From positions 1 to 64,000 of IMG/VR virus record IMGVR_UViG_3300028139_000001: a stretch of 64,000 nt of DNA; one strand, given 5' to 3'. Shown here in pieces: positions 29,601-35,600 of the stretch. The position numbers were made by a program, and so were the translations under genes. Each line of letters opens with the position of its first letter. Within the stretch, counting starts at the first letter, position 1. Below the pieces are notes generated by a model. That model saw only the letters and a list, made by a program, of their open reading frames with translations, did no database searches and had not been told where the DNA came from. Source of the DNA: a virus (Duplodnaviria > Caudoviricetes).

Positions 29601-32600
29601 TTAGCTTTTGTTTCAATCGTAGAATTAATGAATAATAAAGTTCATTTAACAGAAAAAGGGGTAAATCAAATTAAAGAAATAAAAGCCGGAATGAATAAAG
29701 GAAGAGACAATTAATTTGTCTTATTTATTTGCATGATAAATTTGGTGGTCGTGAAAAAATTAGAATGTAGATTAGAAATCTCTCAAAGACGAGAAGATCA
29801 CAAAGGATATGATAATTTCGATTTCTTAAGTAATATTGCTGAGTTTTTAGAAACAGAAGTAAAAAAAATAAGATCGGATAGACCGAAACCTGAGTATAGA
29901 GTTAGAACTACTAATCTTAAAGGTAATATTAAAGCTAAAAATTATCTTTTACAATTTCCTCTATTTGGAACTAAACATTTAGATTCATTAGATTGAATGG
30001 AAGTAGTAGACATGTTTGATAAAAAGGAGCATAATACAGATGAAGGAAAGAAAAAAATAGTAAAGATCAAATCAGGTATGAACAATTTCAGAACAAATTT
30101 TACTTTTGATCATTTACAAAACTTCTACAACTTAAAAAGGGGGAACCCTCTATTTTTAAGTGCTCACAGACACGATTCTACTGAAGGGTCAGTAGTTCCA
30201 GTCAAAATCTACTTAAATGCGGATCTAGATAAGCAAGCTATAATTACCGAAAATAGAGGTAAATCGGGTATTTATCTTTGGGTAAACTTAAAAAATAGTG
30301 AAGTATATATTGGTAGTAGTGTGAGCCTAGGGGTCAGACTTAGAAAATACTATAGCCATTATTATCTTACAAAAGGTAGTAAAGGTATGTACATTTCTAG
30401 AGCTCTATTAAAATACGGGTACTCAGGGTTTAAACTAGAGATTTTAGAATACTGTGCTCCAGAAAAGTGCCTTGAAAGAGAACAATACTATATCGATAAA
30501 TTAAACCCTAAATATAATGTCCTACCTACAGCCGGTTCCCCTCGTGGTCGTAAACATACAGAGGAAGCCCGTAAATTAATGTCAGAGGCTAAAAAAGGTA
30601 ACAGAAATGCCACTGGTCATATAGTTTCTGAAGAAGTCCGAGCCAAAATGTCGGAAGCTAAAAAAGGGTGGAAAAGGCCAGAAAGAGCTGGACGTCACCC
30701 CGTTCTGATAGAAGTAATAGATCTTGAGACAGGAATGACCCAACAATATCCCTCAATAAGGGATCTTTCTAGAGCCATAGGTGTACATGCAGGAAGCATT
30801 AGTAATTATTTATTACCCCCTAGTGGAAAGTCTTCCTCAAGTAAAACTAAAAAGCCTTATAAAGGTAGGTATATATTTAAATATATATAAAAACATATAC
30901 CTTCCCTATCCTTGCTTTCACCTCTGTGGAAAAAATTTATATTGTAGGGGGCTGCTAGGTAGCCTAAAAATAAAATATATTTTTTTTGCAAGGGTAAAAC
31001 CAAAACCTGAAAATTTATATAAAAATATAAGATATAGTCCGATCAAGCACGAGAGTGTTTGCGTGCCTACACTAAGGTTTAATAACCTTTTTAAGCTTAA
31101 AGAACAACACTAAGCTATGTGATTTCATCAAGTAGGCCAACAATTTTAATGGGAATAACTATGGTTCTAACGGACCGTAACTTTAATACATCATTCTTTG
31201 AGGTAGCAGGGGGTGGGGATCCTATATTATATCAACATCTTTTCTTCTTCTTGGTTTTATTACCAAGTAAATTTAAAAATATATCATATCATGATTATAT
31301 AAATTGAGAATATGAATGCTGTCCTAAGCCCCACTCGTTTGCAAATGTTCCATTACATAGTGTACCGCCAAAATTCAGTGCTAGATGGCAGCCCTATAAT
31401 CGTGATCAGCAAAGGGGAGTACAATTAACTAACCGTCGTTCTGAATCGCCAGATGGAATAATCGATCAACTAAGGGCAGCACCATTAACTACCCGTCGTT
31501 CTGCATCGCCAGATGGAATAATCAATCAGGAAAGGAGAGTACCATTAACTACCCGTCGTTCTCCATCGCCAGATGGAGTACTCGATCAGCAAAGGGGAGT
31601 ACCCTTAAATAACCATCGTTCTGAATCGACATATGGAATAATCGATCAACTAAGGGCAGCACCACTAACTACTCGTAATTCTGCATCGCCAGAATTAATA
31701 CCCCGTCTTCCCTCTCCTCCTATAGCAGCATATCCAGGCTGGGATACACCTGTAGAGCGGAGTGGTAGATTTATTGAATGACGTAGGCAGAGAAGATTAA
31801 TACCTACAAATGAACAGCTAGTTCAATTAGAGGCTGATTTATGGTTTTACCAAGATAAACTAATTTCAAATCCTAATTGTACTGCTCAGCGAGATATTGA
31901 TGCTATTCAAAGGGAAATTCTTTTAATAAGAGAACGGTTACGTACGGAAGAGATAACACAGCGACTAAGAGAGTCCCAAGCACAACCGGAAACACAGCCG
32001 GAAATACAGCCGGAAACACAGACGCAAACACAGACGCAAACACAGCCGCAAATACAAGAGGAACCGCAACAACGTCATCCCTCAGGTTGGACACCTATTA
32101 ATTGGAAACCTGGTGACCCAACTACAAATGCTTGTATAACTCTTGTTAGTACAAGAGTGTCCCCATTAGTTGTAAGTATGATAAACCATTTAAGACCATT
32201 ATTAAGTCTAATAATACCTTTAGTCTTATCTGCTTTAACTTTGATTAGTTTATCTTTCATTTCAGATATTCATATCTTGTTAACTAGTATGTTAGGTGAA
32301 ATTTTTGGGTCAGTTCTTTGGGGTTTATGAATAGTTATAGTCTTTTTATTAAGGCTAGTACTTATGATTCGTAAAGCTAAAAAGTCTGTTGTTCTATATG
32401 AAAAATTCTTTAATTTTGCAGCTAATCATTATTCATCTTGAATACTATACTTTTTTATCTTTTTACTAAGTGTAGGATTAGTCTACTGTTGTGGTTGTAA
32501 TTGTAATTGTGTTTGTGATTGTTATTGTGTTTGGGATTGTATTATTAATTGTGATACACCTAGAGATTGAGGACTATATTTTTAATATAGTGCTAATCCA

Positions 32601-35600
32601 AAAGTAGAAGCTTTTGTTAAATAATGTGATAATTTTTGGTGTTAATTGGTTATTACATATATATTTAATATGTTCTAATAGTATAATATAATTATTTTTT
32701 TTTTCACAATTTCATTTTTTTTTTAGTGGAAAAAAGGATTTAGTTTTAACTTTAATATTTATCCAAGTGGGGAATAAATCTAGCAATATTAAAGCCTTAA
32801 ATGTATTATTTACACATCGTATAATTTCTAGACATTCAGAAAATAATACTTATGAATTTTAATTATATGGAGTAAACAATTGTAAAAATATCTTATCTTG
32901 TTTATATAACAATTATATACGATATAATCTTCATCCTGTATCTTTTGCATATATATTAAAATATATTTTATATATAAATTTTTTTCATCTTCAATTATGG
33001 GTGTCCTTTCTTTTTTTTAAGTGTAATACGCTTAAAGAGTTAGTATATTTAGCCTACAAAATGTTAAGAACTTCATGGAAGAGAAGTCAAGGTTAACTGT
33101 AAAGTTTAACAGCTATTGTGACAGATGTAAAATATGAATAAGTTCATATTGGCCAAATATATTACATATAATATATACCTTAGACTTAGTTAATATATAT
33201 ATCTATTACTTGCAACTCTTAATATTAAAGATATAATTTTATATAGTAACTTAAACTGTATATGATTAATAGAAAAAGTGATAAAAATATTAGCAATGCT
33301 GGCAAAAACGGTCAATATACGCTCTATTAAAGACCGTCGGTTAATTAAGTAATCGCTACAGACTGCTATGCCGGTGGGTGTCTGAAATGATGCTTATGTA
33401 CAGTCGATTTCTTCTATCAGAGATACGATACACAGGGCCGGAGTTTAGACTATCGGTACAGGGATTTAATAGGAGGAATTTAAAATAAGTTAAATCTGAA
33501 GAAATGGATTTTTTGGTCACCCAGAGGTTACGAATATAGGCCTCTTAACGTTACCATATGCTGGGACTGCTTCGCTATATGGTTCTAAATACTCCATCTT
33601 AAATGATACAGTAAAAAAGTTAGAACAAAGAAGTAAATCAGCAGGTAAAATTATAACTAAAAAATTTGAAACCTCAGAGACTTTACGTAACGGGATTGTA
33701 GTAAATTCAGAACATGTTAAACATATATCAAAGCATGTTCCTAAGCATTTGAAGCCTCTTAATAACGAACAATTAGGTTATTATTTAGCTGGTTTAATAG
33801 ATGGTGATGGTCATTTCAGTAAAGCTCAACAATTAGTTATAGTATTTAGTAATCCAGATGCATTTCTTGCTTATTATCTAAAAAAACGAATAGGGTACGG
33901 GGCAGTAAGAAAAGTAAAATCAAATTCAGCCGTTATCCTAATTTTTTCTAAACCAGAGGGATTAAAAAAAAATATTGAACTTAATTAACGGTAAACTTAG
34001 AACACAATCTAAGCTAGATGCCGTTAAAGAATTTATACATAATTTTAAATTGTTGCAAACTAACACAGATTTTAAATTAAATAATTCAAATTGTTTAAAT
34101 AATCATTGGTTAGCTGGATTTTCTGATGTAAGTGCTAGTTTTCAAATAAAAAAATTAGATTTTAATGTGGAAATATGTCTAGTTTTTATTGTAAAATATA
34201 AGGAGATTGTTACTATAATAAAAAACTTTTTAGGTGGAAATATTGCCTATGATAAATCTAAAGATGAGTATTTATATAATTCATCTAGTTTTGGTTCGGC
34301 TAGAAAAGTTATTAATTATTTTAATAAGTATCATTTATTGTCAAAAAAGCACATTGATTATTTAAGATGGAGAAAAGCTTATTTAAATGTTATGGATTAT
34401 CAAAAATGAATTTATGATAACAAATTTAGACAAACTTTCTTATTATCTCCAAATTCAGTGCAATCTCGAAGTTATTCGATTTCAACGCCCATAAAATATT
34501 TAGACCCTCACTGGGTGACAGGCTTTGTAGATGGTGATGGGTGTTTTTCCATTGTTATTCTAAAAAACCTAGAATCTAAACTAGGTTGAAGAGTTAAACC
34601 TGTATTTTCAATCAGTCTGCATAAAAAAGATAGAATTATTTTGGAAAAGATACAGTCTTATTTTGGAGGTATAGGAAATATTTATCCGCAAAGTATAAAT
34701 GGTATACAATACCAAGTCTTTTCTCAACAAGAGTTGGCTGACACAATTATCCCCTTTTTTAATAAATATACATTATTAACGCAAAAATGGGCGGATTTTG
34801 AACTATTTAAAAGGGCTTTAGAGGTAATTAATAGCAAAGAACATTTAACTATTGAAGGATTACGTAAAATTGTTACCCTTAAAGCTTCATTAAATAGGGG
34901 TTTACCTGATGAATTAAAACAGGTATTTCCTAATACTACTCTTATTCAAAGACCTTTAATGGAGATAACCCAAATCTTAAACCCTAGCTGAATAGCTGGA
35001 TTCGTTTCAGCCGAGGGTTGTTTTATGATTAAAATTAAACCATCCAAAACAAAACTAGGTGAGGCTGTTCATTTAGAATTTCAAATTACTCAACACATTC
35101 GAGATGAAACATTAATGAAAATGTTTGTTTCTTATTTTAAAGCTGGAAAAAATAACAATTCAGGTAGCGCAGCTATAGACTTTAGAGTTGCAAAATCATC
35201 TGATATTCAAGATAAAATTATTCCATTTTTTGATAAGTATCCTATCATTGGTGTTAAATCTCAAGATTTTGAAGATTTTAAAAAAGTAGCCGAGCTAATT
35301 AAAAATAAGGTTCATTTGACAAATAAAGGTTTAGAAAATATTCGTTTAATTAAAGCAGGAATGAATAAAAGGAGATAATAAATAGAATTCATTTTGCAGA
35401 GTTTTTTTATATTTTATTTAATATAAAAATTATATAATTTTTACTTTACAGTACTTAATCTGTACTTTATTAAAGGGTGTGGGTTAATATTATATGATTA
35501 GCAGTACTTTTTTATTAATTATAAGGAGGGCAAAAAAATAATAATTTAATGAAACATTAGTAAAAGAAAAATTAGGCAATTGTAACGTTAAAAAAGTGAA

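Follow-up and report, generated by a model that had tools for sequence, protein, structure and literature searches.

A copy of the cox1-cox2 fusion junction in an open frame of a cox1 group I intron from Pleosporales-type mitochondrial genomes

The cox1 intron and its open frame

The window analyzed here is a stretch of 64,000 nucleotides (nt), positions 1 to 64,000 of the IMG/VR record IMGVR_UViG_3300028139_000001. It is an AT-rich fungal mitochondrial genome, which we read with genetic code table 4, and in which cox1 is split by many introns and runs stop-free into cox2. The stretch is present in phyllosphere metatranscriptomes. Our subject is an open reading frame (ORF) that continues from a cox1 exon into a group I intron, and that carries there a second, diverged copy of the junction between the fused cox1 and cox2 genes, hereafter the cassette. 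W stands for the window, L-numbers for relative loci, and P-numbers for family proteins or related intron ORFs; the features described at the intron and at the resident junction all lie on the plus strand.

The exon from which the frame departs (31152-31245) ends with the first base of a Trp codon. It is followed by a group I intron of 2261 nt (31246-33506) at the cox1 site between HLF and W (i709), and then by a mini-exon of 23 nt (33507-33529), located between two introns, which completes the Trp codon and continues with FFGHPEV. The last base of the 5' exon is a T (31245) and that of the intron a G (33506), the boundary bases of a group I intron. Joining 31245 to 33507 yields TGA, read as Trp, and restores the conserved Cox1 sequence ..HLFWFFGHPEV. 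Contigs from two metatranscriptome assemblies (X1 and X4) join the upstream exon to 31152 and contain both further joints (31245 to 33507, and 33528/9 to 36282/3). Further contigs of these two assemblies extend across the border between exon and intron or span the whole intron. Relative to the exons, the i709 intron had a depth of ~5-10%, several-fold above the depth of the next intron; contig depth is a poor measure and may include DNA carry-over. Two raw RNA-seq runs labelled as the same organism (X19 and X20) had almost no reads on this stretch. The conserved 3' part of the intron (33084-33506), presumed to be the ribozyme core, ends with G33506 and is 74-80% identical to the same intron in L003-L006. 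No match to the Rfam family Intron_gpI was obtained for the intron at the default gathering threshold, the only one used, and no laxer search was made on 33084-33506; the sole such match in the window is at 53481-53769.

The frame is open from 31101 to 32585 (494 codons), and its intron part (31245-32582) encodes 446 amino acids (aa), with the stop included extending to 32585. It contains no stops, against 6-41 in the other five frames, and with this base composition a run of 446 open codons would arise by chance with a probability of ~1.6e-10. The intron part begins with ~20 codons of the native 5' spacer of the intron ORF (31246-31304), diverged from the ..TLFIFP.. of cassette-less introns (comparison with P0045, P0051 and P0083). 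A 19-aa copy of the Cox1 C-terminal tail comes next (31305-31361), and then a tandem array of 4.8 units of 60 nt (31404-31693), encoding 20-aa repeats, which was detected with Tandem Repeats Finder (TRF) and a second repeat search; it is private to the window lineage and found in none of the aligned homologues. The remainder up to the Cys tract corresponds to what we call the linker module. It consists of a helical-hairpin domain (31761-31985; SGRFIEW..LDxYxD..) delimited by the family alignment and AlphaFold2, a repeat of 6.7 units of 12 nt (31977-32056) encoding a Q/P/E/T-rich low-complexity stretch, a conserved 11-aa motif identified in the family alignments (32073-32105), and a membrane domain (32199-32498). 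This last domain, the best conserved part of the family, has three predicted transmembrane (TM) segments (32199-32255, 32313-32369 and 32442-32498 by hydropathy) and a predicted matrix-side loop, and its DNA is 72-75% identical to that of orthologues. A TGT-rich micro-repeat with periods of 6, 12 and 18 nt (32489-32541) encodes a Cys tract. The copy of the Cox2 head (32550-32633) closes the frame, with CDTPRDWGLYF at 32550-32582, the stop at 32583-32585 and a decayed 15-aa continuation to ~32633. Both the 12-nt and the TGT repeats, found by TRF, differ in copy number among homologues. Since all repeat periods (60, 12 and 6/12/18 nt) are multiples of 3, the arrays are in frame. The repeats, three or so TM segments and Cys tract listed by the initial annotation of this DNA were thus all recovered, as three in-frame arrays and three hydrophobic segments.

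An AlphaFold2 model, built on a 32-sequence alignment, folded the hairpin domain into two antiparallel helices with a predicted local distance difference test (pLDDT) score of 95-98, and was moderately confident for the TM helices. Searches of the 446-aa frame in Pfam, NCBIfam, Foldseek-PDB and the ESM Atlas (queried with the homologue P0002) gave no specific match beyond chance or the cox1 exon. Pfam, NCBIfam and fold searches revealed no nuclease, transposase, reverse transcriptase or other mobility domain in the module. The borders of the cassette were searched for hairpins and terminal inverted repeats, with just weak AT-rich matches as the outcome, and the homologous-protein search contained no longer fused proteins with the module, which is weak evidence.

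Pairwise BLASTP of the frame against the resident junction aligned both anchors collinearly, the head with E 5e-5 (9/13 identities) and the tail with E 4e-4 (10/23). The homology of the anchors is settled by the orthologous intron ORFs, in which tail and head are near-identical to the resident ones and far better preserved than in the window. The initial annotation had reported this frame and its sequence strings as a copy of the cox1-cox2 junction, and in this respect it was right: the tail at 31305-31361 and the head at 32550-32582 both match the resident junction, and the anchors of the orthologues are near-intact.

The resident junction and its variable linker

The resident fused frame of the window (46237-49161) comprises the last cox1 exon, a linker of 52 aa and the first cox2 exon. 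At the junction itself (46483-46728), the Cox1 tail (46483-46521) is followed by the linker, which has one TM segment (46522-46677), and by the Cox2 head from 46678 onward. This is the arrangement of a Pleosporales-type fusion, a Cox1 C-terminal motif and then the Cox2 start in one frame; the intron copy has both elements in diverged form. The short resident linker noted by the initial annotation was confirmed, with a length of 52 rather than 53 aa.

Across five genomes, resident linkers measure 52, 139, 147, 177 and 268 aa, and because they are mostly unrelated to one another, we regard the cox1-cox2 joint as a hypervariable slot. The longest of them, in L004, is the full module, flanked by a Cox1 tail and a Cox2 that are both intact: it is 37% identical over 331 aa to the family member P0009 (E 8e-49) and scores 77.9 bits with the family hidden Markov model (HMM). 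A genome with a long linker between cox1 and cox2, of the kind that the initial annotation proposed to look for as a donor, therefore exists. L004 holds both a resident and an intron copy, and their TM domains are only ~38% identical to each other. The annotation had also described the 397 aa between the anchors of the intron copy as an expanded linker. This does not fit, since the long form is a widespread family and not an expansion of the 52-aa linker, with only the 60-nt array being lineage-specific. As a candidate homologue of the module end, the 52-aa linker of the window was rejected, its family HMM score of 7.2 bits being no better than that of shuffled linkers. Earlier BLAST matches of short resident linkers to the module were due to the Cox2 head.

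Another occupant of the slot was observed at L005:17367-17823 and L006:4295-4775, a 139-147-aa stretch beginning with MDPAG.., with several Cys pairs and then one TM segment, unrelated to the module. In three genomes (L003:17447+, L005:17823+ and L006:4775+), cox2 exon 1 stops after ..KYLNHG and an in-frame intron ORF continues; the window and L004 are without that intron.

A family of linker modules in several mitochondrial contexts

A word search with the 446-aa frame retrieved 11 homologues. Exhaustive phmmer searches (clusters at 50% identity) identified 36 clusters at E<1e-3, 23 of them at E<1e-10, with a best E of 2.6e-74, and a DNA-pattern scan independent of gene calling added 25 metagenomic loci, ~17 of them distinct. 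Members share one order of parts: a Cox1 tail (P.PH.F....L.S), a helical region (W.R...LDxYxD), a Q/P-rich micro-repeat of variable length, the 11-aa motif, three TM segments with a basic loop (LLLMIRRAxKS..) between the second and the third, a Cys tract encoded by TGT repeats and, usually, a 15-aa Cox2-head motif. According to alignments, phmmer and hydropathy, the window frame has all of these defining features.

Most copies were found in the same cox1 intron, reading on from ..DPILYQHLF, in about 20 other distinct Pleosporales-type mitogenomes (intron-borne copies: window, L003-L006, L011, L014-L023, L025, L026, L028, L034/35, P0015, P0018 and P0030). P0018 is annotated as a "hypothetical protein" of Stagonosporopsis vannaccii (Pleosporales). 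Other copies have other neighbours. In L007 and L008/9 the module lies directly 3' of atp6 (identified by Pfam), its ATG overlapping the atp6 stop; in L010 it is fused to a duplicated 5' piece of nad2 (92% identity to L005 nad2); in L001/L002 it precedes cox2 and includes 53 aa of Cox1 tail; and in L037 a frameshifted copy precedes cox3 (identified by Pfam). The nad2 copy retains the intron spacer FCIFPSF and groups with an intron copy with a support of 99 in a quick tree with long branches; given the kept spacer and this nesting, it is secondarily derived from an intron copy. At L038:2-1103, a Cox2-head fragment, a Cox1 tail, the module and a Cox2 head were observed in tandem, together with a run of masked bases, an order suggesting that the junction unit can duplicate head to tail.

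Intron copies share the synonymous head codons GGA TTA TAT TTT, and four of the five resident copies have GGA CTT TAC TTC. The intron copies are no closer to the resident junction of their own genome than to those of other genomes. The shared codon choices would fit a single old capture, later dispersed together with the intron, better than repeated captures in individual genomes or continuing gene conversion. Conversion from the resident junction of the same genome was considered as a cause of anchor persistence and ruled out, there being no extra closeness to the own copy. The initial annotation had called the intron copy foreign; the codon choices suit such a single capture and do not demonstrate a horizontal transfer.

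Relation to the endonuclease of the intron

Cassette-less i709 ORFs, for example those of Bipolaris cookei and Monilinia laxa, read ..TLFIFP..SNQS..FDFSAFYKKYNTHLP..LTWLVGFTEGEG after HLF, the part as far as FDFSAFYKKYNTHLP being a short spacer that precedes a standard two-motif LAGLIDADG enzyme. Cassette-bearing ORFs keep the ..FIFP.. part, continue with the junction copy and, after the Cox2 head, resume at FCFIAFYEKYNTHLP..LTWLVGFTEGEG. In L017 and L028 the cassette and an intact endonuclease form a single open frame, and L016 and L031 are nearly so. Because cassette-bearing ORFs resume the enzyme, and because it is intact in L017 and L028, we conclude that the junction was inserted into the N-terminal spacer of the endonuclease ORF and did not replace that ORF. 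The suggestion of the initial annotation that the intron carries the junction instead of an endonuclease must be revised accordingly: the copy precedes the native LAGLIDADG gene, with which it once formed a single ORF and which is represented in the window by a remnant at 32727-32946.

This remnant, located by tblastn and motif matching, is the decayed C-terminal part of the gene, with a frameshift, a stop and large deletions; most of the window endonuclease has been deleted. The motif KKGFSFNFN at 32727 corresponds to EKRGFSFNFN of the intact enzyme, and a broken segment of 47-53 aa (32788-32946) aligns by tblastn with residues 288-339 of P0045 (49% identity, E 3e-9). No match to PF00961 was found in the 446-aa frame, and this intron of the window lacks the open two-motif frame of ~250-300 aa that an intact enzyme of this kind has.

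Insertions were also observed elsewhere in this ORF. A short insert (..LIFFFFCLNQLLNTAKEKKK..) splits the first LAGLIDADG motif, between GFT and GEGSF, at L020:~1290-1380, in L022, L023 and L025, and at L026:~4000-4440. In L026 the second motif is split by an insert as well, and the first insert is in frame, so that the ORF reads through. P0051, the cassette-less i709 ORF of Bipolaris cookei, has a 20-aa G/S/P-rich insertion at the exact position of the cassette in other genomes. The spacer position of the i709 ORF seems to tolerate or attract insertions.

Selection and alternative explanations

Evidence that the cassette is maintained comes from genomes in which the homing endonuclease gene (HEG) downstream has decayed. 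In L003, 7 stops and a frameshift occur in 255 HEG codons and none in the adjoining 385 cassette codons; by simple arithmetic, the chance that 7 random stops over 640 codons all miss the cassette is ~0.002. In W, L004, L020 and L034, where the HEG is dead or deleted, the cassette likewise has no stop or frameshift, and the adjacent HEG and Cox2-head remnants carry 2-8. Copies without a downstream HEG are also open, for 320-440 codons: L007 and L008 (after atp6), L010 (nad2) and L001 (before cox2). When the observed substitutions were placed at random, the 135-codon TM domain stayed open in 0-14% of trials per pair. Hydropathy profiles correlated at 0.72-0.92 between copies and at 0.53-0.75 in neutral simulations; for most pairs, the observed value was reached by few simulations or by none. 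These pairwise tests have branches in common. The initial annotation had pointed to a frame intact up to the putative Cox2 maturation region and broken after it, and this pattern was borne out, with stops in the Cox2-head and HEG remnants; the orthologous intron ORFs, moreover, are not riddled with stops. Its statement that the linker is under selection stands for the frame and the hydropathy, and fails for the residues, on which pN/pS (the ratio of nonsynonymous to synonymous differences) of the orthologous ORFs shows no purifying selection. In our reading, selection acts on "an open, membrane-spanning chain" rather than on a precise fold, and diversifying selection may contribute.

Taking these data together, we consider it probable that what lies in the N-terminal spacer of the i709 LAGLIDADG ORF, and is kept open there, is an ectopic paralogue of the cox1-cox2 fusion junction of Pleosporales. 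Of the parts of this reading, the anatomy and history of the junction copy are very likely correct; that the intron copy makes a protein that matters is a conceivable, somewhat doubtful claim. Several points weigh against the reading. In the best conserved 135 codons, pN/pS ranges from 0.63 to 2.0 across the family and codon-position differences are flat; among close intron copies pN/pS is 1.6-3.1, with a simulated null of ~1. For comparison, pN/pS is 0.35-0.64 in the HEG part of these ORFs and 0.05-0.26 in host exons. Purifying selection on residues, that is, a ratio of nonsynonymous to synonymous substitution rates (dN/dS) well below 1, was hence not found for the cassette (pN/pS 0.63-3.1). 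The 5' 700 nt cannot be aligned between orthologues at the DNA level, and broken copies occur (L029/30, L032, L033, L037 and P0033). Homologues were first picked up as called proteins, which biases the set towards open frames. RNA contigs, with their poor depth measure and possible DNA carry-over, cannot show translation, and no relative among Pfam, NCBIfam, PDB folds or the Atlas hints at a function.

The pN/pS values around or above 1, the flat codon-position differences and the unalignable N-terminal half are what would be expected if the cassette were a neutral passenger, a spacer once merely read through for the sake of the downstream endonuclease, with no function of its own and with an open frame that is a leftover not yet decayed. 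The freely varying copy numbers of the in-frame micro-repeats, the position of the cassette upstream of an intact HEG in one ORF in L017 and L028, and the existence of broken copies agree with this too. We nevertheless find it unlikely: the cassette stays open next to remnants with 2-8 disablements in no fewer than five lineages whose HEG is dead or deleted (W, L003, L004, L020 and L034), copies with no HEG downstream remain open over 320-440 codons, and the hydropathy profile is more conserved than in neutral simulations. Mere chance resemblance or an annotation artefact, with fortuitous anchor matches in a random long ORF, could appeal to the weak tail match in the window alone (10/23 identities). 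Its probability is practically nil in view of the significant and collinear anchors, the near-identical anchors of orthologues, the complete absence of stops in 446 codons where other frames have 6-41, and a family of 36 clusters.

Alternatively, the module may be an autonomous selfish ORF, a mobile element without endonuclease whose home is the 3' end of cox1, which made the fusion by its insertion and spreads with Cox1 and Cox2 flanks, fast amino-acid turnover reflecting host conflict. Copies do occur in at least five host contexts, each set for translation from the host gene, whether by an in-frame fusion, by an ATG that overlaps the stop of atp6 or by a duplicated 5' end of nad2. In the quick tree, copies from outside the intron are nested within the intron copies, and pN/pS values above 1 were obtained for close copies. 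A Cox1-tail-like sequence also opens a second, unrelated ORF family (window 56900-57691, L010 187-918), and in yeast Mss51 docks on the extreme C-tail of Cox1 (PMC5683760). Against this stand the lack of any nuclease, transposase, reverse transcriptase or mobility domain among the search results, the equal ability of passive duplication, through illegitimate recombination at internal micro-repeats, to explain the movement, and the long branches of what is only a quick tree; most loci are without taxonomy, so that neither the direction of moves nor the origin of the fusion can be set. We judge a selfish ORF to be quite improbable. Very unlikely, too, is a bolder combination, in which the hairpin and the three-TM module would be a fast-evolving mitochondrial gene that moves between host genes as "tagged cargo", always with a Cox1 tail and often with a site for Cox2 maturation. 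Host messages would serve for its translation, polyprotein processing would release it, and it could then disturb or tune the assembly feedback of cytochrome oxidase; the Pleosporales fusion would go back to its insertion between cox1 and cox2.

Proposed mechanism

Under the preferred reading, an ectopic junction copy kept open in the intron, the captured unit would have comprised the last ~20-30 cox1 codons, the long linker module and the first ~11-40 cox2 codons, inserted in frame. Where the module is the resident linker, its three TM segments would lead the chain across the membrane, from the C-terminus of Cox1 on the matrix side to the N-terminus of Cox2 in the intermembrane space. An odd number of TM segments would be needed because these two termini lie on opposite sides; the short linker of the window has one and the module three. 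The basic loop between the second and third segments would fit the matrix side. By analogy, the last segment with the following C and D(A/T)PR would act as the yeast Cox2 leader and Imp1 site do, yeast Cox2 having a leader of 15 aa that is removed by Imp1 in the intermembrane space (PMC5905295).

Translation of the intron copy would require pre-mRNA that has not been spliced, and would yield a protein fused to the N-terminal stretch of Cox1 for which the upstream exons code. Intron ORFs fused to upstream exons are expressed from the unspliced precursor, as is established for yeast maturases. Retention of the intron copy might then be explained by some effect of its membrane protein, what is selected being the open frame and the hydrophobic pattern and not residue identity. 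Release of the linker by Imp-type processing at the copied tail and head is a matter of pure inference from the analogy with yeast. Since the extreme Cox1 C-tail is the docking site of Mss51 in yeast (PMC5683760), a regulatory or interfering role of tail-tagged ORFs is conceivable, if speculative.

Other features of the window

The second ORF family with a Cox1-tail-like start (KPHVFSSMPLQS, then GIFTINRKFIIG) is located 3' of the cox2 end in the window (56672-57697; 56900-57691) and just upstream of the module copy in L010 (187-918). Between its two members, identity is 31% over 274 aa (E 2e-26), and neither has a Pfam or NCBIfam match. Elsewhere in the window, an Rfam match to a group II intron domain (9427-9494) adjoins an 889-codon frame (6570-9239), in a stretch of higher G+C content (0.38-0.42).

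Significance and comparison with known systems

The Pleosporales cox1-cox2 fusion has been noted for nearly twenty years. According to our analysis, the joint is not a seamless one but a hypervariable slot, with lengths of 52 to 268 aa in five genomes, and a conserved membrane module whose TM segments are odd in number is among its occupants. This diversity bears on the question of how two subunits whose termini have opposite topologies arise from one frame. A host-gene junction can also enter the ORF of a homing endonuclease, outlast the endonuclease and seed copies in atp6, nad2 and cox3 contexts, with an unusual selective signature in which frame and hydrophobicity are retained and residues are free or diversifying. 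If the module is expressed, it would constitute a new mitochondrially encoded protein family in a group with many plant-associated fungi. If it is not, it would be a clean case of read-through ORFs inflating fungal mitogenomes. In the open-access texts searched, neither the module nor the variable linker slot nor the intron copy is described, in line with the statement of the initial annotation that none was known.

Fusions of cox1 and cox2 occur in Stemphylium lycopersici, Corynespora, Exserohilum and Coniothyrium, as well as in Acanthamoeba and Dictyostelium. The window has the same continuous frame, and the intron copy reproduces its junction. In Pleosporales, the two genes have been described as "seamlessly adjacent" in one ORF, and the variable linker of 52-268 aa, the conserved module and junction copies elsewhere are unmentioned in these reports (PMC5626475, PMC8598970, PMC8956966).

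Known i709 LAGLIDADG ORFs (Bipolaris cookei A0A2H4NRP2 and Monilinia laxa A0A7L8EYE5) have the same site, 5' spacer and enzyme, and are 75-80% identical to the HEG of cassette-bearing ORFs. Unlike them, the ORFs described here have a ~1-kb piece of a host-gene junction between spacer and endonuclease, and in the window the enzyme is dead and the insert open. The resident and copied heads (C followed by ..DTPRDWGLYF) align with the start of mature yeast Cox2 (..N, then DVPTPYACYFQDSATP). The TM segment preceding them would give the N-out topology that the yeast leader supports (PMC5905295). In contrast to that leader of 15 aa, the "leader" here would be a polyprotein linker of 52-400 aa with a predicted cleavage site.

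Parallels for the moved piece are also found in other chimeric ORFs. In Allomyces, atp6 with an in-frame GIY-YIG ORF is a case of a foreign gene-terminus piece co-transferred with a mobile mitochondrial ORF. Such pieces, and the chimeric ORFs of the plant cytoplasmic male sterility (CMS) type, are likewise hydrophobic chimeras of respiratory-gene termini and sequence of obscure origin, riding on the transcript or frame of an essential gene. The unit described here differs from them in that it moved without an endonuclease, has no known phenotype, and is a conserved family in many species rather than a one-off rearrangement. We class the module as a newly recognised ORF family, and its intron copy with the chimeric, host-gene-derived ORFs of fungal mitochondrial introns.

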